Shown: one piece after another, positions 11,373 to 41,124 of the stretch
How positions within the stretch are numbered: the stretch's first letter is position 1
How the letters are laid out: each line of letters begins with the position of its first letter
Translations under genes and position numbers: made by a program
From: Deltaproteobacteria bacterium
GTDB lineage: Bacteria; Myxococcota_A; UBA9160; SMWR01
DNA: 64,000 nucleotides
Direction of reading: 5' to 3'
NCBI GenBank assembly: GCA_024638705.1
Contig: JAHEJV010000001.1
Coordinates: 9 to 64,008 of the forward strand
The notes under the pieces: generated by a model
Database searches by the model: none
Told to the model about the DNA's origin: nothing
The model's input: the letters and a program-made list of their open reading frames with translations, nothing else

Positions 11373-11474
11373 TCGACGCACCGCGTTGAAGCCCTGCGGC
11401 ATGGCCGCGGGTGGGCAGATTTTCCCTCAACTGGCTGTTTTCAAAGAAAACTCCCAGGCCTTCGCCCGGCGAAC

Positions 11475-11502
11475 TTGACGCATTGACGCGCCGTGTTATA
11501 CT
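11475..11502 (+). promoter_or_regulatory. Sigma-70-type promoter candidate for the phasin-like gene
   Basis: TTGACG (11475-11480), a 16-nt spacer, then TATACT (11497-11502), in the fabH-phasin intergenic region. Confidence 0.5.
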
Positions 11503-11635
11503 GCGCTGCGTCGTGACGGAAAGCCGCCTCCGGCGATCGCCGGGCTCCGCGGACCCCTCCGACGAAAGCCCCTCATCCTCCGCCTGGACGGTCACCCCGC
11601 CGGCGAATCGAGAAAGCGAAGAAGGAAAGATCCCC

Positions 11636-12100
11636 ATGCCCGAGACCACCATTCTCCAGGAAAGTGCCGACCGATTCCGCGAGGCCTTCGGCTCGATCGA
11701 AGACGAATTCGAGAAGGTCCAGAAGGACCTGCGCAAGCGCGGCAAGACGTTCGAGAAGCGGCTCGACACCCAGCGCAAGGACCTCGAGAAGCGCGCCAAG
11801 AAGCTGCGCACCCAGATCGAGAAGAGCGCTCCGGTGAAGCGGCTCGAAGCCCAGCGCAAGGACCTCGAGAAGCGCACCAAGAAGCTGCGCACCCGGATCG
11901 AGAAGAACCCGACCGTGAAGCGCATGGAGAAGGCCCGCAAGGACGCCTCCAAGCAGATCGAGAAGAACCTGAACGAGGTGCTGGGCGCGCTCCAGATCGC
12001 CTCGAAGAACGACGTGCAGCGCATCGACCGGAAGATCTCCCAGATCAATCGCAAGATCTCGGAGATGTCGAGCAAGAAGCGCGCGAACGGCAAGGCCTAG
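11636..12100 (+). CDS. Phasin-like / PHA granule-associated coiled-coil protein
   Basis: ATG at 11636 follows GAAGGAAAG. The protein is highly charged and helical. Its C-terminal segment LGALQIASKNDVQRIDRKISQINRKI resembles the conserved end of PHA granule-associated proteins. Confidence 0.55.
   Translation: MPETTILQESADRFREAFGSIEDEFEKVQKDLRKRGKTFEKRLDTQRKDLEKRAKKLRTQIEKSAPVKRLEAQRKDLEKRTKKLRTRIEKNPTVKRMEKARKDASKQIEKNLNEVLGALQIASKNDVQRIDRKISQINRKISEMSSKKRANGKA
11759..11920 (+). repeat. In-frame tandem duplication, 2 x 81 bp (27 aa), inside the phasin-like gene
   Basis: Unit 1 (11759-11839) encodes RLDTQRKDLEKRAKKLRTQIEKSAPVK. Unit 2 (11840-11920) encodes RLEAQRKDLEKRTKKLRTRIEKNPTVK. The two units are near-identical at the nucleotide level. 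Confidence 0.9.
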
Positions 12101-27340: not shown

Positions 27341-28699
27341 TCAGGAACCCACCAGACGCAGGCCCTCGCCGGCTTCCTCCGACGATTCTTCCTCGTTCGC
27401 CGGCGCCTCGGCCCAGCCCTGGGCGACGCGCGCCCGCGCGGCGCGACGGCGCGCCGCCTCGCGGTCGAGGGCGATGCCATAGCGGGCGAAGACGGTCTCG
27501 AGCTGATCGAAGTTCTGCTCGATCGTGCCGCGCACCGAGTCGAAGCCCTGCTTCACCGCATGCGAGCGCTTCCAGAAGGCGATCGGATTCACGCCGAAGT
27601 AGTCGGCGTCGTTCTCGCGCGGCTCGATCAGGACGATGTCGCCCTGGAAGCGGTCGTCGGCGAGGTAGCGCTGGATGCCGAGCTTGAGCCGCGAGTGGAG
27701 CAGCGTGCGGAACACCTGATTGATGATCGCCTTCATCCCGCGATCGGCGATATAGCGGCCCTCGGCGAAGTAGGAGAGATCGGCATCCTCGTCGTCGATC
27801 CGGTTCAGGAACGGACGGAACGGGTTGTAACAGATGATGAGGTCAGCGCCCTTCTCGATCGCGATGTCGATGTTTGCCGTATGGCGCACGCCGCCGTCCA
27901 CGTAGTCGACGCCGTTGATGCGAGCGGGCTTGTAGAAGATCGGCAGCGCGCTCGAAGCCTGCACGGCCTGGGAGATGGTGAGCTCGCTGCTCTCGTCGGG
28001 GCCGAAGATCACGCGCTCGGCGGTGTCGAGGTCGCAGGCGGTGATGTAGAGGCCCTTGCCCGTCTTGCGTCGGAAGGCGCGGAAGTCGTTCGGGATCTTG
28101 ATGCGCTCGAGGCTGCGACGCGACCAGCGCTCGAGGCTCTCGTTGTCGAAGAAGCCGCCGGGGATGTGATTCATCGGCGACGGGACTTCGCGTTTCGGCG
28201 CGATGTGCTCGATCAATCGCAGCGCCACGCTCTCGAACTGCGTGTAGCTCGGACGCCGGAAGAACTCGCGCAGCGGCCCGCGCACCGCGCTGGGGAGGCC
28301 GGGCACGCCCCGCGCGAAGTCGTAGGCGATGCTCGGCAGATAGGTGGCGAGGTCGTAGGAGAAGCGCGCCGGGCGCGTCAGGAACTCGCGGGTGTTCGGG
28401 TTGTAGAAGTCGGTGGGCTTGAGCTGGTCGAGACGGGTGCTGCTGCCGTCGAGCACCTTCACCATCTCGTCGGGCGTGACCCCCGAGGCGAGCGACGACC
28501 CGAGGATCGCGCCGGCGGAGAGACCGACGTAGAGATCCATGTCGGTGATCTTGCGGTCGACGAGGAAGTCGTTGAGCGCCTTGAGCCCTCCGACCTTGAA
28601 GGCCCCACCCGTCACTGCGCCGCCGGCCAACACCAGCGCCACCTTCGGGTTGGAGACGGGACGCGTCCCGTCGCTCTTGCGGATCAACGTCAATCCCAC
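27341..28699 (-). CDS. Patatin-like phospholipase
   Basis: Oxyanion LAGGAVTGGAF, nucleophile elbow GLSAG (GxSxG), and catalytic Asp in DYVDGGV. Confidence 0.88.
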   Translation of the reverse strand: MGLTLIRKSDGTRPVSNPKVALVLAGGAVTGGAFKVGGLKALNDFLVDRKITDMDLYVGLSAGAILGSSLASGVTPDEMVKVLDGSSTRLDQLKPTDFYNPNTREFLTRPARFSYDLATYLPSIAYDFARGVPGLPSAVRGPLREFFRRPSYTQFESVALRLIEHIAPKREVPSPMNHIPGGFFDNESLERWSRRSLERIKIPNDFRAFRRKTGKGLYITACDLDTAERVIFGPDESSELTISQAVQASSALPIFYKPARINGVDYVDGGVRHTANIDIAIEKGADLIICYNPFRPFLNRIDDEDADLSYFAEGRYIADRGMKAIINQVFRTLLHSRLKLGIQRYLADDRFQGDIVLIEPRENDADYFGVNPIAFWKRSHAVKQGFDSVRGTIEQNFDQLETVFARYGIALDREAARRRAARARVAQGWAEAPANEEESSEEAGEGLRLVGS

Positions 28700-29083
28700 A
28701 GGCTGGATCTCCTACCGGGTGACTCTAACCGTGCTCCCTCTCGTCTCTCCGATCGACCGAATGGGTCCGGGACCGGAGCATTGGCGAGCGCACGAGCGCC
28801 GCCCCAATGCACTGCGTTAGCGCAGATTCGCCCTCGCAGCGAGTCGGCGAGGCGTTCGCGACCCGGCCGAGGCCGGCGTCGAGATAGATTTTGCTAATCA
28901 CCTCGAATATTTGAAAGACTCGCTTGCGGGTCGGCGGGGGATCGGAGGGAGGTCGGATCCCGCGCGGGCGTAATGGCGCAGCGCGTCAGCAAACACGTAG
29001 GGGTTTGAACACATGACCGGGTCCGTGGTAGAAGAGTCTCCCGCCGCGGCGAAGTCGCCGGCCACCTCGGGGGTGGGTCATTC

Positions 29084-33230: not shown

Positions 33231-34742
33231 ATGTCGCGTGTCCGGACGGCCGCGCTCTCCGGCGTCGACGGTGTGCCCGTCGAGGTCGAGGTGCGGATCA
33301 GCTCCCAGCTGCCGCGTGTGGAGATCGTGGGCCTGCCCGAGGCCGCTGTACGCGAGAGCGCAGCGCGCGTGCGTGCGGCGTTGGCCGCGGCGGGCGAGAA
33401 GTTTCCCGATCGACGCGTCACGATCCATCTCGCGCCGGCCGAGCTGCGCAAGAGTGGAGCGGCCCTCGATCTGCCGATCGCCGTCGCGCTGCTCGCCGCC
33501 GAGGGCCAGCTCGAAGCTGCCGTGATCGAGGGGGTGGCGCTCGCGGGGGAGCTCGCGCTCGACGGTCGCGTGCGGCCGGTCCGCGGCGCGTTGGCGCTGG
33601 CGCTCGCCGTGCGCGACGCCGGCTGTCACACGCTGATCGCTCCCGATGCGAGCGCGGCCGAGGCCGCACTGGCCCAGGGGCTCGAGGTGCGCGCGGCGAG
33701 CGACCTCGCCAGCGCGCTCGAACACCTGCGAGGAGGAGAGCCGTTGCCGGTTGCGGTCGAGGCGCCGCCGGCTCCCGCGCCGAGCGACGCGCCCGACCTC
33801 GCGGACGTGCGCGGTCAGGAGCTCGCGAAACGCGGGCTCGAGGTGGCGGCGGCGGGTGGGCACGGTGCGCTGCTTGTCGGCGCACCCGGCGCGGGAAAGA
33901 CGATGCTCGCCCGGCGCATGCCCGGCTTCCTGCCCCCGCTGTCCTGGGACGAGGCCCTCGACGTGACGCGCATCCACGGCGCCGTCGCGCCGCTCGGCGC
34001 GGCGATCGTCTCCCAGCGTCCTTTCCGCGCGCCGCATCACACCGCGAGCGCGGCGGGCCTGGTCGGGGGCGGGCGACCGCCGCGCCCCGGCGAGGTGTCA
34101 CTCGCCCACCGCGGCGTGCTCTTCCTCGACGAGCTCCCCGAGTTCGAGCGGCGCGCCCTCGAGTCGCTGCGTCAGGTGCTCGAAGACCGGCGCGTGGTGC
34201 TGGTGCGCGCCGGCGGCCACGTCAGCTTCCCGGCCGACTTCCAGCTCGTCGCGGCGATGAACCCCTGCCCGTGCGGCTGGCTGGGGAGTGGTCTGCGCGA
34301 CTGCCGCTGCGACGACGGTCAGGTGGCGCGCTACCGCGCGCGCATCTCGGGCCCGCTGCTCGATCGCATCGATCTGCACCTGCGCGTCCAGCCGCTCGCC
34401 TGGGCCGAGCTCGACGCCCCGCCGGCGTCGCAGACCGGGAGCCGGGCCGTGCGCGAGCGGGTCGTGGCCGCGCGCGAGCGGCAGGCCGTCCGCGGCGTCG
34501 CCTCCAACGCGCGACTCCCGGACCACTCCCTCGACGCGCAGGTCGACGCCACGCCCGAGGCCCGCGCACTCCTCGGGCGGGCCGTCGACGGCTTCGGTCT
34601 CTCGGCCCGGGCGGCGCGGCGCGTGCTGCGGGTGGCGCGCACGATCGCCGATCTCGCCGACGAGGAGCGCACCGGACCGGAGGCGATCGCCGAAGCCCTC
34701 GCCTACCGCCAGGACGCCGGCCCCGCCGCGAGCGCCCGGTGA
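33231..34742 (+). CDS. comM: Mg-chelatase-like AAA+ protein YifB/ComM
   Basis: N-terminal Lon-protease-like domain (VEVEVRIS...LPRVEIVGLPEAAVRES). Walker A is GAPGAGKTMLA and Walker B is VLFLDELPEF. Zn-binding CPCGW...CRC. Confidence 0.92.
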   Translation: MSRVRTAALSGVDGVPVEVEVRISSQLPRVEIVGLPEAAVRESAARVRAALAAAGEKFPDRRVTIHLAPAELRKSGAALDLPIAVALLAAEGQLEAAVIEGVALAGELALDGRVRPVRGALALALAVRDAGCHTLIAPDASAAEAALAQGLEVRAASDLASALEHLRGGEPLPVAVEAPPAPAPSDAPDLADVRGQELAKRGLEVAAAGGHGALLVGAPGAGKTMLARRMPGFLPPLSWDEALDVTRIHGAVAPLGAAIVSQRPFRAPHHTASAAGLVGGGRPPRPGEVSLAHRGVLFLDELPEFERRALESLRQVLEDRRVVLVRAGGHVSFPADFQLVAAMNPCPCGWLGSGLRDCRCDDGQVARYRARISGPLLDRIDLHLRVQPLAWAELDAPPASQTGSRAVRERVVAARERQAVRGVASNARLPDHSLDAQVDATPEARALLGRAVDGFGLSARAARRVLRVARTIADLADEERTGPEAIAEALAYRQDAGPAASAR

Positions 34743-34930
34743 AGCCCGATCTCCGCCCGGCACCCCGCGCGCAACGTCCGAAAATTGACAGTCGGGGGAC
34801 GCAAGTCGTCACCCCGACGTGCATCCGCAGCGCAGCCGCCGCGCGCGTCCCGCGCGGCGGCCTCCACAACCCATTGGAATTCCTGGGATTGCCTCGTTTC
34901 TCGCGCGAAGGCCCGGCATCGACTAAGAGA

Positions 34931-34946
34931 TGGCACGGTTGATGCT
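34931..34946 (+). promoter_or_regulatory. Sigma-54 (-24/-12) promoter candidate upstream of the small ORF and Topo VI genes
   Basis: TGGCACG-gttg-ATGCT with GG/GC spacing of 12 nt. The RBS-like GGAAGGAAGG and the ATG at 34973 follow within 27 nt. Confidence 0.5.
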
Positions 34947-34972
34947 TCTCACCGGGGTATGGAAGGAAGGTC

Positions 34973-35176
34973 ATGAGCGCTGCAGCGACGACGATCGCCC
35001 GATCCGGGGCGGCTACGAAGCCCCGGGCCACGACGCTGCTCGCCCTCGTCCGCGCCATCGGCGAGGTGACCGACGACGAGAGCGAAGTGGTCGCGACGGT
35101 CCTCCACATGCTGCGCAGCGGGGAAGTCCGCCTCTGCGGCAACTTCCGCGGCCACGACCCCGAAGACCTCGCGTAG
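34973..35176 (+). CDS. Small hypothetical protein (67 aa) preceding Topo VI
   Basis: ATG preceded by GGAAGGAAGG. Third codon positions are strongly G/C, like genuine genes here. No recognisable domain. Confidence 0.45.
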   Translation: MSAAATTIARSGAATKPRATTLLALVRAIGEVTDDESEVVATVLHMLRSGEVRLCGNFRGHDPEDLA

Positions 35177-35310
35177 CGGCCGCCCGACGCGATCCGTCCA
35201 CCCGCCGGGCGAGCCCCGGGCGATCTCCTCCCGCTGAGCGCTTGACCGCCCCGCGACGGGGAAGGAACATCCCACCCGACGGCGCAGCCCGGAGCGCCGC
35301 ACGGGGGTGA

Positions 35311-37077
35311 ATGTCGATGGCCGAAGGGGACAGGTCCGTCCCGCGGGTGGCGTCTGCCCGCGATGCGTCGGACGATGCGACGCAGGGGAGCAAGGTGACG
35401 ACCGGCGGCAGGAAAACCGGCAGCAAGAAGCGCGCGCGCAAGCCCGCGTCGAGCCAGAAGCGGGCGAAGAAGAAGACCGCGAAGAAGGCTTCGGCGAAGA
35501 AGGTGCCCGAGAACCGCAGCCGCTCTGCGGCCGAGCTCGGCGCCCAGGCGCGCGACATCTCGGTCTCCGAGTTCTTCGCGAAGAACCGTCACCTGCTCGG
35601 CTTCGACAATCCGTCGAAGGCGCTGCTCACGACGGTGAAGGAAGGCGTCGACAATTCGCTCGACGCCTGCGAGGAGGCCGGGATCCTCCCGGACATCCGC
35701 GTCGAGATCAAACAGGTTTCCGAGACGCGCTTCCGCATCGCGATCCAGGACAACGGCCCCGGTATCGTGCGCAAGCAGGTGCCGAAGATCTTCGGCTCGC
35801 TGCTCTACGGATCGAAGTTCCACCGCTTGAAGCAGAGCCGCGGCCAGCAGGGCATCGGCATCAGCGCCGCCGGCATGTACGGCCTGCTCACGACGGGCAA
35901 GCCGATCGAGATCACGACGCGCACCGGCAAGGGCAAGGAAGCGCACTACTTCGAGCTCGTGATCGACACGAAGAAGAACGAGCCGAAGGTGAAGAAGGAC
36001 GAGGTCGTCGAGTGGGACATCGACCACGGAACGCGCGTGGAAATCGAGCTCGAGGGCGCCTATCGCGGCGGCCAGCACTCGGTGGACGCCTACATCCGCC
36101 AGATCTCGCTCGCGAACCCGCACGCCGAGATCACCTTCGTGCCGCCGAAGGCCGAGGAGCACGGCGCCAGCCACACCTTCCCGCGCGTCACGAAGGACCT
36201 CCCGCCGGAGACGGCGGAGATCCAGCCGCATCCCTACGGCGTCGAGCTCGGCGTGTTGATGCAGATGTTCCGCGACACGAAGGCGCGCAACGTTCGGTCG
36301 TGTCTGTCGTCGGACTTCTCGCGCGTGTCGTCGAAGACGGCGCTCGACATCTGCCAGAAAGCGGGCGTGAAGGAGAACCGGCGTCCGTCGGAGATCACCC
36401 GCGAAGAGGCCGAGAAGATCCACGACGCGATCCAGAAGACGAAGATCATGTCGCCGCCCACCGATTGCATCGCGCCGATCGGCGAGGAGCTGATCGAGGC
36501 CGCCCTGAAAGCGGAGGTGGACGCCGAGTTCTACGCGTCGGTGACGCGCAAGGCGACGGTCTACCGCGGCAACCCCTTCCTCATCGAGGTGGCGCTCGCC
36601 TACGGCGGCGAGCTGTCCGCCGAGGATTCGGTGACGGTCTTCCGCTATGCGAACCGGGTCCCGCTGCAATACCAGCAGGGCGCCTGCGCGATCACGAAGG
36701 GCGTGACCGGGACGGACTGGAAGTCCTACCAGCTCCAGCAGCCGCGCGGCGCGCTGCCCGTCGGGCCCATGCTCCTGATGGTGCACATCGCGAGCGTCTG
36801 GGTGCCGTTCACGAGCGAGAGCAAGGAAGCGATCGCGCACTATCCGGAAATCATCAAGGAGATGCGCCTCGCCTTGCAGGAGTGCGGACGCCGCGTCGCC
36901 ACCTTCATCCGCAAGCGCAAGCGCGAAGCCGACGAGGCGAAGAAGCGCGCCTACATCGAGAAGTACATCCCACAGGTGTCGATCGGGCTCCAGAGGATCC
37001 TGGAGCTCTCGGACAAGCAGCGCGACCAGGTCACGTCGAATCTCACCGACGTCCTCGAGCGCAGCCGAAAGATGTAA
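35311..37077 (+). CDS. top6B: DNA topoisomerase VI subunit B (GHKL ATPase plus transducer) with a Lys-rich N-terminal tail
   Basis: Bergerat-fold motifs EGVDNSLDACEE (N box), IQDNGPGI (G1) and SRGQQGIGISAAGMY (G2). H2TH-like and transducer regions follow (YANRVPLQYQQGACA). About 70 aa of K/R/A-rich N-terminus. Confidence 0.92.
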   Translation: MSMAEGDRSVPRVASARDASDDATQGSKVTTGGRKTGSKKRARKPASSQKRAKKKTAKKASAKKVPENRSRSAAELGAQARDISVSEFFAKNRHLLGFDNPSKALLTTVKEGVDNSLDACEEAGILPDIRVEIKQVSETRFRIAIQDNGPGIVRKQVPKIFGSLLYGSKFHRLKQSRGQQGIGISAAGMYGLLTTGKPIEITTRTGKGKEAHYFELVIDTKKNEPKVKKDEVVEWDIDHGTRVEIELEGAYRGGQHSVDAYIRQISLANPHAEITFVPPKAEEHGASHTFPRVTKDLPPETAEIQPHPYGVELGVLMQMFRDTKARNVRSCLSSDFSRVSSKTALDICQKAGVKENRRPSEITREEAEKIHDAIQKTKIMSPPTDCIAPIGEELIEAALKAEVDAEFYASVTRKATVYRGNPFLIEVALAYGGELSAEDSVTVFRYANRVPLQYQQGACAITKGVTGTDWKSYQLQQPRGALPVGPMLLMVHIASVWVPFTSESKEAIAHYPEIIKEMRLALQECGRRVATFIRKRKREADEAKKRAYIEKYIPQVSIGLQRILELSDKQRDQVTSNLTDVLERSRKM

Positions 37078-37088
37078 CGAGAGGAACC

Positions 37089-38435
37089 ATGGCGGCCCGG
37101 AAGAAGACGACGAAGAAGAAGACGACGCGGAGGAAGGCGCCCGCGGCGAAGCCGAAGGCGAAGCCCGCGGCGAAGGACGGCCAGACGGCGATGCACTTCG
37201 GTCCGAAGCGCACGCCGGCGAAGACCGCCGCCGCGAAGAAGAAGGCGCCGCGTCGCAAGTCGGGAGGCAAGTCCGGCGGCAAGAAGGGTGCGCGTGCGGC
37301 CAGCGCCCACGCCGACGAGGTGGCGAAGATCAACGCGGCGAAGGACGACGTCGTGTTGCAGCAGATCCAGAACGCGGCCACGGACGTGCACAAGGACATC
37401 CTCAAGCGCAGCAAGCCCGACCTCGCCTTCCCCGTGCGCTCGCTGAAGAACGTCTCCTACTCGACCGGGAAGGGCTATTTCGAGATCGGCAAGGCGAAGA
37501 AGGTGCGCACCCTCACGGTGAACACCGTGAAGAGCTTCGCCCAGACGCTGCGCATGATGGGCCTCTCGAAGGAGCTGGTGGAGACGAACGACTTCGCCAC
37601 GAAGCGAGACGCCTACTACCAGAGCAAGAACTGGGACGCGGCGAAGTTCGACGAGCAGAGCGAATCGGACGCGGTGATGGACGACATCGAGGCGCTCTTC
37701 TCGATTCGTGGGTCGTCGCGCGAGCAGCTGCGCTTCGTCCCCGACGAGCACGGTGGCGCCGTGGCCGGGCGCCTCGTCGTGCTCGACCCCGACCGCGAGA
37801 CGGGCGAGGTGGAGCGCATCGACTGCACGCGCTTCGGGTCGGGCGCCTACTCCATCCCGTCGACGGTCGAGCACCTCTCCTTCGAGACCGACGCGAAGTT
37901 CATCCTCGCGATCGAGACGGGCGGCATCTTCCAGCGCCTGCAGAGCCACAAGTTCTGGCAGACCTCCGATTGCATCCTCGTGTCGATGGCCGGCGTGCCG
38001 ACGCGCGCGACGCGCCGCTTCATCCGCAAGCTCTCGGACGAGTGCCGCATTCCCGTCTACGCCTTCGTCGACTGTGATCCGTACGGCATCTCGAACATCT
38101 ACCGGACGCTCAAGGTCGGGTCGGGAAACGCCGCTCATCTCTCCCAGTTCTTCTGTGTGCCCCAGGCGCGCTACCTCGGAGTGACCCCGCAGGACGTGAT
38201 CGACTACGACCTCCCGACCCACCCGCTCCAGGACGTCGACATCAAGCGCGCGAAGGACGCCCTCAAGAACGACCCTTTCTTCAAGGCGCACAAGCCGTGG
38301 CAGAAGGCGATCGAGCAGCTCCTCAAGATGGGCGTGCGCGCCGAGCAGCAGGCGCTGGCGAAGTGGGGGCTCAACTACGTGATCGACGAATACCTGCCGG
38401 CGAAGCTCGCCAACCCGGGGCGCTTCCTGCCGTGA
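37089..38435 (+). CDS. top6A: DNA topoisomerase VI subunit A (Spo11 family) with a Lys/Ala/Pro-rich N-terminal tail
   Basis: Catalytic Tyr motif TKRDAYYQS, Toprim Glu in ILAIETGG, and DxD in FVDCDPYG. Starts 11 nt after the top6B stop. The first 75-85 aa are [28 protein letters not shown]-like. Confidence 0.92.
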
Positions 38436-38451
38436 CACGGCGAGCGCGCGC

Positions 38452-39327
38452 ATGAAGGGCATCGTCCTCGCAGGCGGTTCGGGCACGCGCCTGCACCCGA
38501 TCACGCGCGGCGTCAGCAAGCAGCTGCTGCCGATCTACGACAAGCCGATGATCTACTATCCGGTGTCGAGCCTGATGCTCGCCGGCATCCGGGAGATCCT
38601 GCTGATCTCGACACCCGAGGATCTGCCCTCCTATCGGCGGCTGTTCGGCGACGGTCGCGCGATGGGTCTGGCGGTCTCCTACGCCGAGCAACCGAAGCCC
38701 GAAGGCCTGGCCCAGGCGTTCCTGATCGGACGCGACTTCGTCGGCGACGATCACGTCGCCCTCGCGCTCGGCGACAACGTCTTCTACGGCCACGGCTTCA
38801 CCGAGGTGATCCAGCGCGCCGCCGCGCGCGAGTCGGGCGCGACCGTGTTCGGCTATCACGTGCACGACCCGGAGCGCTACGGCGTCGTCGAGTTCGACGC
38901 GCAGGGCGTGGCGATCGGCATCGAGGAGAAGCCGGCGAAGCCGCGCAGCCACTATGCGGTGACGGGCCTCTACTTCTACGACAACCGCGTGCTCGACATC
39001 GCGGCGGGCCTGAAGCCCTCGGCGCGCGGCGAGCTCGAGATCACCGACGTCAACCGCGCCTATCTCGAGGCGGGCGATCTCTACGTCGAGCTGCTCGGAC
39101 GCGGCGTCGCGTGGCTCGACACCGGCACCAACGAGTCGCTGCTCCAGGCGCAGACCTTCGTCGAGACGATCCAGGAGCGACAGGGGCTGCGGATCGCGTG
39201 TCTCGAGGAGATCGCGTTCCGCAACGGCTGGATCTCGCGCGACGACCTCGCCCGGCTCGGCGACGAGATGGGGAAGTCGAGCTACGGCGCCTATCTCCGT
39301 CAGGTCGCCGCCGGCGAGACGGCCTAG
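38452..39327 (+). CDS. rfbA: Glucose-1-phosphate thymidylyltransferase
   Basis: [18 protein letters not shown], and YDKPMIYYP. Confidence 0.95.
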
Positions 39328-39331
39328 CGCA

Positions 39332-39889
39332 GTGGCGCTCGAATTCGTACCGACCGCGATCCCGGGCGTCGTGCTCGTCGAGCCCCAGGTACACCGCGAC
39401 GCGCGCGGCTTCTTCCTCGAGAGCTACCACGCGCAGAAGTACCGCGAGGGCGGCATCCCCGGCCCGTTCGTCCAGGACAACCACTCGCACAGCGCGCGCG
39501 GCACCCTGCGCGGGCTGCACGCGCAGAACCCGAATCCGCAGGGAAAGCTCCTGCGCGTGATCGAGGGCGAGGTGTTCGACGTCGCAGTCGACGCGCGGCG
39601 CGGCTCGCCCACCTACGGCCAGCACGTGAGCGTCGTGCTATCGGCCGAGAACATGAAGCAGATCTACGTCCCGCCCGGCCTGCTCCACGGCTTCGTCGTC
39701 ACGAGCGACATCGCGCAGGTCGAGTACAAGTGCACCGCCTTCTACGACCCCAAAGGCGAGTTCTCCGTCGCCTGGAACGACCCGGATCTCGCCATCCCGT
39801 GGCCCGTCGATGCGCCGGTCCTCTCGGAGAAGGACGCGAAGGCGCCGCGCCTGGCGGAATCGACGGAGCGTCTGGTCGACTTCGCGTAG
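39332..39889 (+). CDS. rfbC: dTDP-4-dehydrorhamnose 3,5-epimerase
   Basis: GTG start. Motifs seen: [16 protein letters not shown], and [10 protein letters not shown]. Confidence 0.93.
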
Positions 39890-39895
39890 GTCGGC

Positions 39896-40054
39896 CTAGA
39901 AGTCCTCTTCGACTTCCAGCTCCTCGTCGTCCTTCTTCTGGATCACGCCGGGGGAGCCGCAGCAGGAGCAGTAGAACTCGTCGCCGGGGCGCTCGTCGCC
40001 GGACATGGGCATGTCGGCCTGGCAGATCGGACAGGTGAGTTCCTGCTGGCGCAT
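39896..40054 (-). CDS. Small zinc-ribbon protein with acidic C-terminal tail (52 aa)
   Basis: Full sequence is MRQQELTCPICQADMPMSGDERPGDEFYCSCCGSPGVIQKKDDEELEVEEDF, with a CPxC...CxxC pattern. No obvious RBS. Overlaps the 3' end of the apbE ORF in another frame. Confidence 0.4.
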   Translation of the reverse strand: MRQQELTCPICQADMPMSGDERPGDEFYCSCCGSPGVIQKKDDEELEVEEDF

Positions 40055-41124
40055 CTCGAGAAGATCGGAGCGCCGCAGGCCCGGCTTGAGTCGGCGGGAA
40101 CGGGCTCCGCGGGGGGGCCGTCCAGCTCCTCGAAACGCGTTTCCGCGTCCCAGCCTTCGGTGCGCCAGCTGCGTCCGTCGGCGTCGAGGAGCAGCGCCTC
40201 GGCGTCGGGCCAGGACTCGACCAGCGCGATGCCCTCTTCCGGGGCGAGCACGAGCAGCGCCTTCGAGAGCGCCTCGGCGTCGGTGGCGTCGCCGCCCACG
40301 ACGAGCGCCTGACGACGCGCGATGAGCGGATTCCCGGTGCGTGGGTCGAGGATGTGGCCGTACCGCCGACCGGCGATCTCGCGCGACGAGCCGAGATTCG
40401 CCGAAACCGAGAGCGCGCGGTCGCGCAGGGTGAGGACACCGGCGAAGCCGCCGTCCGGCGCGCGCGCGAGCAGGCGCCAACCCGCGGCGTTCGGCGGCTT
40501 GCCGATCGCCCAGGCGCTGCTCTGACCGAACGAGAGCAGCCCCGCGACGACCCGCCCCGGCAGCTTCGCGCGCACGCGATCGAGCGCATACCCCTTCGCG
40601 ATGCCGCCCAGATCGATCGCGCTGCCCGCGTCGAGCGCGATCCGCGCGCGGGTCCCGTCCGTCTCGATGTCCAGATGAGCCGGCCCCACCCGCGCGCGCG
40701 CGGCCGCGAGCTCGGCGCGCGACGGCCGGCGTCCGCGCTCCTCGGCTTCGCGCCACAGCGCGACGAGCGGACCGACCGTCACGTCGAAGGCGCCGGACGT
40801 CTTCTCCGTGAGCTCGGAGGTGTGGGTGAGCAGAGCGGCGACTTCGCCGTCGACGAGGACGGGCTCCCCGCCCGCCGCGGCGTTGATCCGGCTCACGTCG
40901 CTCGAGGGGCGCCAGGTCGAGACGAGCGACTCGATGCGCTCCACTTCATCGAAGGCGTCCTCGATCGCGCGCTCGAGCGCGAGCACGTCGGTGCCGAGCA
41001 GCGTCACCTCGAGCGCCGTGCCCATCGCGTAGTCGCCGGCGGAGCGCTCGATCGGTGCAGGCGGCGGTGCGGTCGCGCAGCCGAGCGCGATGCCCAGGAG
41101 CGGGAGCGCGGCCCGCGGCGTCAC
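39943..41124 (-). CDS. apbE: FAD:protein FMN transferase (ApbE family) lipoprotein
   Basis: GTG at 41124 overlaps the upstream gene's stop (GTGA). Lipobox LGIALGC. Motifs seen: GAFDVTVGPL, IDLGGIAKGYA and GHILDPRTG. The last 60 aa or so are low-complexity and overlap the Zn-ribbon ORF. Confidence 0.85.
   Translation of the reverse strand: MTPRAALPLLGIALGCATAPPPAPIERSAGDYAMGTALEVTLLGTDVLALERAIEDAFDEVERIESLVSTWRPSSDVSRINAAAGGEPVLVDGEVAALLTHTSELTEKTSGAFDVTVGPLVALWREAEERGRRPSRAELAAARARVGPAHLDIETDGTRARIALDAGSAIDLGGIAKGYALDRVRAKLPGRVVAGLLSFGQSSAWAIGKPPNAAGWRLLARAPDGGFAGVLTLRDRALSVSANLGSSREIAGRRYGHILDPRTGNPLIARRQALVVGGDATDAEALSKALLVLAPEEGIALVESWPDAEALLLDADGRSWRTEGWDAETRFEELDGPPAEPVPADSSRACGAPIFSRCASRNSPVRSARPTCPCPATSAPATSSTAPAAAPPA

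Follow-up and report, generated by a model that had tools for sequence, protein, structure and literature searches.

This study concerns a DNA topoisomerase VI (Topo VI) locus in a 64-kb stretch of contig JAHEJV010000001.1 from an uncultured Myxococcota bacterium. The whole stretch of 64,000 nucleotides is called the window, and all coordinates given below are positions within it. The gene for the B subunit, top6B, occupies 35311..37077 (+) and encodes a protein of 588 amino acids with GHKL ATPase, H2TH and transducer domains, as recognized by Pfam and NCBIfam models. The gene for the A subunit, top6A, follows at 37089..38435 (+) and encodes 448 amino acids comprising winged-helix/5Y-CAP and Toprim domains (Pfam). 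A small gene of 67 codons precedes the pair at 34973..35176 (+). Both subunits begin with a basic tail: residues 1-72 of Top6B (35311..35526 (+), net charge about +15) and residues 1-78 of Top6A (37089..37322 (+), net charge about +25). Within the Top6A tail, residues 32-41 (37182..37211 (+)) form a short hydrophobic island containing the sequence QTAMHF, a candidate β-clamp-binding motif. The kind of enzyme and its occurrence in this phylum are known, while the conserved architecture of tails, motif and small gene is new.

The locus had been recognized as canonical Topo VI in a first-pass annotation made from the DNA letters, which proposed profile hidden Markov model searches as a check. Pfam and NCBIfam models match both proteins. 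Top6B matches the Pfam families HATPase_c (8e-11) and PF09239 Topo-VIb_trans (3.6e-61, over the full model length), and scores 705 bits against the NCBIfam equivalog NF003218, whose cutoff is 274. Top6A matches PF04406 TP6A_N (2.8e-16), Topo_VI_alpha and PF21180 TOP6A-Spo11_Toprim (1.6e-60). Its best NCBIfam model, NF003337, is spanned from position 5 to 370 of 370, with a score of 470 bits that lies under the cutoff of 675. The closest solved relatives are archaeal: M. jannaschii 1D3Y for Top6A (373 bits over 301 amino acids) and M. mazei 2Q2E_B for Top6B (512 bits).

The motifs on which the initial assignment was founded are all present in the translated proteins, namely EGVDNSLDA, DNGPGI and GQQGIGIS in Top6B, and the tyrosine motif RDAYYQS, AIETGG and DCDPYG in Top6A. 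Loss of the catalytic tyrosine or of the Toprim residues on alignment would have spoken against Topo VI. These residues are retained: R173, Y177, E276 and D328/D330 of Top6A are kept in alignments to 1D3Y and 2Q2E, and the catalytic residues are invariant among 30 aligned orthologues. RDAYYQS aligns with REAYYVS of M. jannaschii, which places Y177 at what we take to be the position of Tyr103 in that enzyme. In the Toprim domain, E276 belongs to AIETGG and D328/D330 to DCDPYG. In Top6B, E111 and N115 align to E44 and N48 of M. mazei. The switch lysine is found in SESKEA, which aligns with SESKDA of M. mazei, the WKxY motif is present as WKSY, and the glycine boxes are retained relative to the same protein. 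On every criterion that can be tested in a sequence, including the full-length equivalog match that separates Top6B from Topo VIII, Mini-A, MksG and Spo11-like relatives, the pair belongs to Topo VI, and we hold with high confidence that it represents a functional, resident enzyme.

The genes are closely packed, and the gaps reported earlier are correct: 11 nt separate top6B from top6A (37078-37088) and 16 nt separate top6A from rfbA (38436-38451). A ribosome-binding site, GAGAGGA, lies 5′ of the top6A ATG. For top6B, translation may start at the second ATG, at 35317, because of the spacing to the Shine-Dalgarno-like GGGGGTGA and because a 95%-identical orthologue has its annotated start there (MAEGD...). 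The exact 588-amino-acid Top6B product is not on record.

Lysine-rich tails on both subunits were among the first features noticed at this locus, together with the impression that archaeal enzymes do not have them. Both observations are confirmed. The tails measure 72 and 78 residues and contain the lysine-rich strings originally quoted, and they are missing from the solved structures, from the family models and from the archaeal representatives examined. The NCBIfam models begin at residue 74 of Top6B and residue 79 of Top6A. Residue 6 of M. mazei Top6B aligns to residue 73, and residue 16 of M. mazei Top6A aligns to residue 89. Since models and archaeal structures alike start past the tails, the N-terminal 72 and 78 residues are additions to the conserved enzyme.

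Comparison of orthologues, which had been suggested as a control, was carried out on 72 species carrying tails on both subunits. Across these species-level genomes the K/R-rich composition is kept and the sequence is not. The B tails have a median length of 59.5 amino acids, a median net charge of +14.5 and a median K+R fraction of 0.27; the corresponding medians for the A tails are 29 amino acids, +9.5 and 0.36. Top6B tails of orthologues extend over 22-126 amino acids, and those of the full-length Top6B homologues listed are K/R-rich and measure 30-136 amino acids. Top6A begins with MAARKK or MAAKKK in 119 of the 120 close homologues listed (one of the 120 did not match the core anchor). This start is followed by a K/R/T/A-rich tail of 17-81 amino acids, in which 6-33 basic residues occur and acidic residues are nearly absent. 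The tails vary in sequence and length, accumulate insertions and deletions of whole codons, and show more non-synonymous than synonymous changes while retaining their composition. This pattern is the signature of a constrained, presumably disordered region. An AlphaFold2 model of full-length Top6A (30 sequences, 76-94% identity) reached a mean predicted local distance difference test score (pLDDT) of 36, and no conclusion on tail disorder was drawn from it.

Lysine-rich segments are rare in this stretch of genome. With a threshold of at least 8 lysines per 30 amino acids, three places were found in the six frames of the window, two of which are the tails. The idea that such tails are a general habit of the proteome was rejected, as the only other segment belongs to one unrelated open reading frame (ORF). 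This ORF, at 11390-12100 (+), is K/E-rich and helical, contains QRKDLEKRAKKLRT twice and has no NCBIfam match; it may encode a coiled-coil or phasin-like protein.

The island is the sole conserved hydrophobic stretch in the otherwise variable tails, which outside it have hardly any hydrophobic residues. In the subclade of the window it is carried by Top6A, where relatives show QTAMQF, QATLAF, QPALAF or QASLPF, each followed by GPK[RK]. In most lineages it is found at the extreme N-terminus of Top6B (MAEQESFAF, MSKQGSFAF, VSEQQSFVF) and takes the form M-x-x-Q-x-S-F-x-F. Islands of canonical form occur in some lineages, as MNRQGSLF, EEQLVLGL and, at locus L078, GQLDLF. Tail peptides that bear on clamp binding are, besides that of the window, MAEQESFAFAAK and the QLDLF and QLVLGL variants.

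A simple pattern (Q..[LMFI]F or Q..[LMFI].[FLY]) was used to count the motif. It matches the B tail in 42 of the 72 species and the A tail in 3, never both, and neither tail in 27. Thus the motif is present in exactly one tail in 45/72 species, a set of phylogenetically related organisms, whereas shuffles that preserved tail composition gave 0.24 such species on average and never more than 2. Of 41 Top6B proteins with the motif in independent gene calls, 28 have the glutamine as their fourth residue. Within the window subclade the two subunits alternate: Top6A carries the motif if Top6B has lost it, and vice versa. The N-terminal DRSVPRV of the Top6B studied here aligns with DQLVLRL of close relatives, and its QTASAR with QTSFAF; DRSVPRV resembles a degenerate remnant of the motif. 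Motif and charge are inversely related, with a median tail charge of +38 in motif-less species versus +19 in the others (Mann-Whitney p=3.6e-5, again among phylogenetically related species). This looks like a trade-off between two alternative ways to stay on DNA. At locus L004 the Top6A island reads ELGSLAFAPPRG, with the glutamine replaced, and Top6B there is also without the motif; this island is possibly a decaying or variant form.

Proteins that bind the bacterial sliding clamp do so through a pentapeptide Q-phi-x-L-F (QL[S/D]LF), in which positions 1, 4 and 5 are most important, or a hexapeptide Q-phi-x-L-x-L (PMC3919608; bioRxiv 10.64898/2026.05.27.728225). Examples are QLVLGL in Pol IV, QVELEF in Pol III alpha, 6-QLSLPL-11 close to the N-terminus of Hda and QLSFF in MutS (PMC3919608, PMC5397184, PMC3716654, bioRxiv 10.64898/2026.05.27.728225). 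The QTAMHF of the window agrees with this consensus at Q1, M4 and F6 and has threonine at position 2. In relatives, the motifs range from canonical (QLDLF, QGSLF, QLVLGL) to atypical (QESFAF). The island lies in a low-complexity, flexible or terminal region and shows island-like conservation, which is the context expected of a clamp client. Like Hda, Pol IV and Pol III alpha, the tails present a single Q-x-x-Phi-(x)-Phi peptide in such a region, and some relatives have a literal QLVLGL, QLDLF or QGSLF at the homologous site. The commoner versions of the island differ from these clients: their position 2 is E, G or T, and phenylalanine occupies positions 4 and 6. We treat the island as a candidate β-clamp-binding motif and place the chance that it serves for clamp docking a little below even.

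Several points weigh against a clamp-bound enzyme. Neither the commonest variant, QESFAF, nor the QTAMHF of the window has the preferred aliphatic residue at position 2, and the B. subtilis MutL peptide QEMIVP, which has a glutamate there, failed to bind as a free peptide. A recognisable motif is missing in the 27 species mentioned above. The enrichment and charge tests treat related species as independent samples and carry no correction for phylogeny. The choice of Top6B starts in the loci made use of the motif itself, though independent annotations agree with it. Finally, no bacterial topoisomerase figures among the listed clamp partners (PMC9690074).

Taking these features together, we lean towards a replication-linked decatenase that the basic tails, and possibly the β clamp, keep on the DNA. 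The locus encodes a working A2B2 Topo VI, inherited vertically in this uncultured Myxococcota bacterium, which most likely acts as a dedicated decatenase and relaxase in place of topoisomerase IV (topo IV). A decatenase role is proposed because, in the text of PMC11302465, Topo VI-bearing bacteria outside Pseudomonadota and Terrabacteria are described as being without topo IV, and because a preference of Topo VI for decatenation is known (PMC8837201). No gyrase or topo IV gene is found within the 64-kb window. The disordered cationic tails, gained on both subunits, contribute about +40 per AB pair and about +80 per tetramer. They would function as non-specific DNA tethers, raising the local affinity for DNA and aiding its capture. 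By analogy with archaeal holoenzyme structures, the N-terminus of Top6B would be situated at the ATP gate, the entry point of the T-segment, and that of Top6A beside the stalk and the G-segment surface. The island would dock on the β clamp and so bring the enzyme to newly replicated DNA. The parts of this view are not equally secure: a tethering function of the tails is somewhat more probable than not. A more elaborate account has an enzyme of archaeal transfer origin become a sliding-clamp client, with a motif that moved between subunits, a task in removing precatenanes behind the fork and the 67-amino-acid protein as accessory subunit. We regard this account as tentative.

The tails could also be non-specific polycationic tethers to DNA or the nucleoid and nothing else, in line with the histone-H1-like tethering suggested in the first-pass annotation, which is plausible. 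The island would then bind another partner, such as the small protein, an SMC/ParB-type factor or the core of the enzyme itself, or no partner. This explanation finds support in the DNA-contacting surface of Top6B. The KGRR loop of M. mazei (K186/R188/R189), which is reported to be essential for strand passage (PMC5922973), is replaced by RGGQHS (residues ~252-257), and RGGQ is found in 118 of 120 orthologues. In addition, relative to M. mazei, K399 in the WKxY region is changed to aspartate and R263 in the H2TH domain to serine. The tails may compensate for these lost basic residues. It is also in line with this explanation that the K/R-rich composition is universal in the clade when the motif is not, and that the common variant has no aliphatic residue but E, G or T at its second position.

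A precedent for such tethers exists in the actinobacterial type IA topoisomerase TopA. In Streptomyces, the C-terminal lysine repeats of TopA stabilise the enzyme-DNA complex and confer processivity (PMC5714199). Streptomyces and Mycobacterium TopA and the present enzyme have in common a lineage-specific, lysine-rich disordered extension on a topoisomerase, which here is a Lys/Arg-rich extension conserved on both subunits in the 72 species. However, the extension of TopA is a C-terminal tail on a single polypeptide, whereas the type IIB enzyme carries N-terminal tails on both subunits and a hydrophobic motif within them. Simple tethering leaves exactly this motif unexplained: a hydrophobic island that is conserved and keeps its N-terminal place, canonical QLDLF, QGSLF and QLVLGL at the homologous site, a move from one subunit to the other, and the inverse relation to charge. 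Tethers with no role for the clamp thus appear rather unlikely, and we retain the replication-linked decatenase, tethered by its tails and possibly clamp-bound, as the favoured interpretation.

The small gene upstream of top6B bears on a second alternative. The 67-codon ORF at 34973-35176, which the first-pass annotation had put forward as a possible accessory factor, exists as described. Its conserved core reads TTLLxLVRAIxEVTDDxxEVVATVLHxLRSGxVRLCGNFRG. Between it and its counterpart at locus L001, 21 codons differ synonymously and 12 non-synonymously, with 8/6/27 differences at the three codon positions, and GC content at third codon positions (GC3) is 0.94 over the 48 conserved codons. These figures mark it as a genuine gene kept by purifying selection. 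Applied to the 68 species with enough upstream sequence, a profile built from its homologues detected the gene in 57, immediately 5′ of top6B and in the same orientation, and 11 were without it; the gene is conserved and linked to top6B in most species. The family comprises 169 clusters of 65-72 amino acids, all annotated as 'hypothetical'. An attribution of the ORF to the upstream gene comM was rejected, as it accompanies top6B when comM is absent: at locus L085 unrelated genes replace comM and the small gene stays beside top6B, and many other loci retain it without an adjacent comM. The gene comM itself is probably outside the unit, since it is not always adjacent.

The AlphaFold2 model of the small protein (mean pLDDT 83) has a beta-alpha-alpha-beta arrangement and is confident over residues 18-60. 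A Foldseek search of the PDB with this model gave no match below E=4. The protein has no Pfam or NCBIfam match, and 40 members of the family searched at E<=1 returned only sub-threshold noise from THDPS_N_2. Its net charge, calculated from the sequence, is negative. Linkage to top6B suggests an accessory or regulatory role for the small gene. Nevertheless, gene order is weak evidence for its function, as rfbA and rfbC are conserved downstream of the pair too.

The second alternative holds that the tails are regulatory: auto-inhibitory or partner-gated elements whose action the small protein, mildly acidic itself, would neutralise, or factors that drive partitioning into nucleoid condensates. 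Tight linkage of the small gene to top6B and the negative charge of its product would suit such a role, and the tails evolve fast with insertions and deletions, as regulatory disordered regions do. Yet the 11 species without the small gene keep their tails, and the synteny of rfbA and rfbC shows that linkage need not equal shared function. We consider a regulatory function of the tails improbable.

Upstream of the pair, a candidate sigma-70-type promoter for top6BA is located at 35242..35270 (+), with TTGACC, a 17-nt spacer and GAACAT. The arrangement of TTGACC or TTGACA with GAACAT, GATTAT or GATCAT recurs in several related intergenic regions, and the two genes may have their own promoter. 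A scan for consensus promoters and terminators over 34600-40200 returned no promoter, 35242-35270 being left uncalled, and terminators at background frequency. Searches of the whole window with Rfam (at gathering thresholds) and for tRNAs gave no match.

A more basic doubt is whether the tails are made at all. In the window, in-frame GTG codons occur at V65 of Top6B, 8 codons before the canonical start, and at V78 of Top6A, 1 codon before it, and long open frames arise by chance in genomes of high GC content. The tails might then be annotation artefacts and the lysine-rich stretches an untranslated leader. True starts downstream of the lysine-rich segments had indeed been named as a finding that would overturn the initial proposal. 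Several lines of evidence speak against this. In-frame GC3 is 0.90 in the B tail and 0.93 in the A tail, equal to the cores, whereas the true intergenic region has no codon periodicity. No ATG, GTG or TTG is found within 15 codons upstream of the canonical start of Top6B in 62 of 74 species, or of Top6A in 51 of 80; in those species the tail must be translated, since a start codon near the core is missing. Most orthologues are of this kind and retain their tails as protein. The MAARKK and MxxQxSFxF peptides are conserved at a variable distance from the core and always in frame. Furthermore, the AAG-rich composition is limited to top6A and top6B, and the ATG at the head of the top6A tail follows a ribosome-binding site. 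The artefact is thereby largely refuted and very improbable, and the tails are very probably translated and selected. The V65 and V78 GTG codons could in principle give rise to tail-less forms in the window organism, which counts against the favoured view, though all the remaining evidence favours the long forms.

The surroundings of the locus are those of a bacterial chromosome. Upstream lies comM/yifB (33231..34742 (+)), encoding a Mg-chelatase-like AAA ATPase (TIGR00368, 499 bits). Downstream lie rfbA and rfbC (38452..39889 (+)) of the dTDP-rhamnose pathway (TIGR01207, TIGR01221). The typically bacterial neighbours listed in the first-pass annotation are confirmed for YifB/ComM, GlmU, Fur and the Mrp antiporter, and the window further encodes HflX, FolC, MurQ, ApbE, NhaR, a MATE transporter and YqgE. 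GC content is ~0.70 in the window and 0.66 in top6B and top6A. The GC3 of these two genes (0.94-0.95) is like that of neighbouring genes.

Relatives were sought in one genome per species and are encoded in 389 species-representative genomes, of which the best 80 were used for synteny. These 80 (69-91% identity) are all uncultured Myxococcota or 'Deltaproteobacteria' metagenome-assembled genomes, a few of them with evidently wrong bin labels. The order comM-sORF-top6B-top6A-rfbA-rfbC, in which sORF denotes the small gene, is common to dozens of Myxococcota genomes. In most loci rfbA and rfbC lie directly downstream of top6A, and they possibly share an operon with it. This neighbourhood probably reflects inherited gene order and not shared function.

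Because gene order is shared across related genomes and codon bias matches the host, long residency is indicated: Topo VI is, by these two measures, an old resident of the clade that has been inherited vertically. The proposal of a resident bacterial enzyme is thus upheld by synteny, host-like codon usage and intact catalytic residues, and the possibility it had left open, an archaeal or mis-binned contig, conflicts with bacterial flanks on the same contig. One part of the earlier account needs correction, as 'only sporadically reported' overstates the rarity of Topo VI in Myxococcota. The text of PMC11302465 records the enzyme in three families (Anaeromyxobacteraceae, Vulgatibacteraceae and Polyangiaceae), and relatives exist in the 389 genomes mentioned above; its presence in the phylum is already known and is not new. 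Least credible of all is that the operon came recently from archaea, that the contig is a mis-binned chimera, or that the genes are a functionless relic in decay. This explanation is supported by the archaeal identity of the nearest solved relatives and a gene GC content slightly under the window mean, but housekeeping genes of bacterial type on the same contig, identical gene order in dozens of Myxococcota species at 69-91% identity, host-like codon bias, an ancient archaeal origin already described in the text of PMC11302465, and catalytic residues that are all intact and conserved argue against it; recent transfer and chimera were rejected on synteny and conservation.

Comparison with archaeal Topo VI (2Q2E, 1D3Y and S. 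shibatae 2ZBK) reveals the same two-gene A2B2 architecture, the same domains and the same catalytic residues. The enzyme described here differs in its bacterial host and in having ~72 and ~78 extra K/R-rich N-terminal residues. Unlike M. mazei Top6B, the Top6B of the window is without a C-terminal Ig-like domain (588 versus 621 amino acids) and has RGGQ in place of the basic KGRR loop. Bacterial Topo VI was described by Allen & Maxwell in 2024 (PMC11302465), whose text covers the same phylum and expects a decatenase role in the absence of topo IV; the Methanococcales affinity of the window enzyme fits one of the two bacterial clusters in that text. The main text of PMC11302465 contains no basic tails, clamp motif or upstream small gene, with 0 matches for 'lysine', and where it speaks once of an 'extension', the Ig-like domain at the C-terminus of M. 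mazei Top6B is meant. Two further systems offer parallels. E. coli topo IV and MukBEF (PMC3950513) share with the present proposal the concept of a partner that directs a decatenase, but enzyme family, partner and interface all differ. The plant proteins RHL1 and BIN4, as presented in the text of PMC11302465, are a precedent for small lineage-specific Topo VI accessory proteins and thus an analogy for the 67-amino-acid protein. No similarity of sequence or fold was detected for the latter, and the link is one of gene neighbourhood.

In the open-access literature, nothing was found on lysine-rich Topo VI tails, on clamp motifs in topoisomerases or on the small partner gene. The role of Topo VI in bacteria is an explicitly open question, which the tails, the candidate clamp peptide and the small gene make experimentally approachable. 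These features suggest how an enzyme of archaeal origin adapted to the bacterial replisome. If the sliding-clamp account is true, docking on the bacterial clamp would be shown for a type II topoisomerase for the first time, and the function of Topo VI in bacteria would have a concrete answer. A real clamp link would add a new class of clients to the clamp 'tool-belt' and would offer a target surface found only in bacteria that depend on Topo VI. Should the link prove false, what is left is a clean case of a topoisomerase in which both subunits have gained cationic tails of conserved composition.

A second Topo VI lineage served for comparison, represented by P0285-like metagenome loci (L086-L166). 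Its Top6A is ~37% identical to that of the window, starts with MAKKK… and has short basic N-termini (median 19 amino acids). Its Top6B extensions are of mixed charge and carry a conserved (K/R)RRRATAQSMAA before the core. The motif pattern was found in 0 of 79 Top6A tails and in 1 of 18 Top6B upstream regions, where the match lies 89 residues upstream of the core. In 24 of 81 loci top6B adjoins top6A on its upstream side, many of the contigs being short. These negative results make the motif and the long polycationic tails a specific feature of the Myxococcota-type lineage.

Some other sequences met in the course of this work deserve mention. An ORF of 455 amino acids at 27341-28708 (-) has weak similarity to patatin-like phospholipases, matching models of a CBASS cGAMP-activated phospholipase (1.7e-6) and of VpdC (6e-9), both far under the cutoffs. 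An Asgard Top6A, P0293 (labelled Hermod- or Odinarchaeota; 443 amino acids), has an N-terminal extension of ~90 amino acids with KRLKQLLKIDSGRLRRLLRKLEKDGLIES, which looks like a winged-helix domain, unlike the bacterial tails. Several representatives (P0270, P0278, P0284, P0286, P0287, P0291 and others) are 800-1060 amino acids long with the Top6A core at one end; these may be B-A fusions, multi-domain proteins or eukaryotic forms. Lastly, the NCBI pipeline gives the name 'DNA topoisomerase IV subunit A' to the Top6A proteins P0040, P0105 and P0107 and to the model NF003337. This misnomer could hide bacterial Topo VI in annotation surveys and mimic the presence of topo IV.

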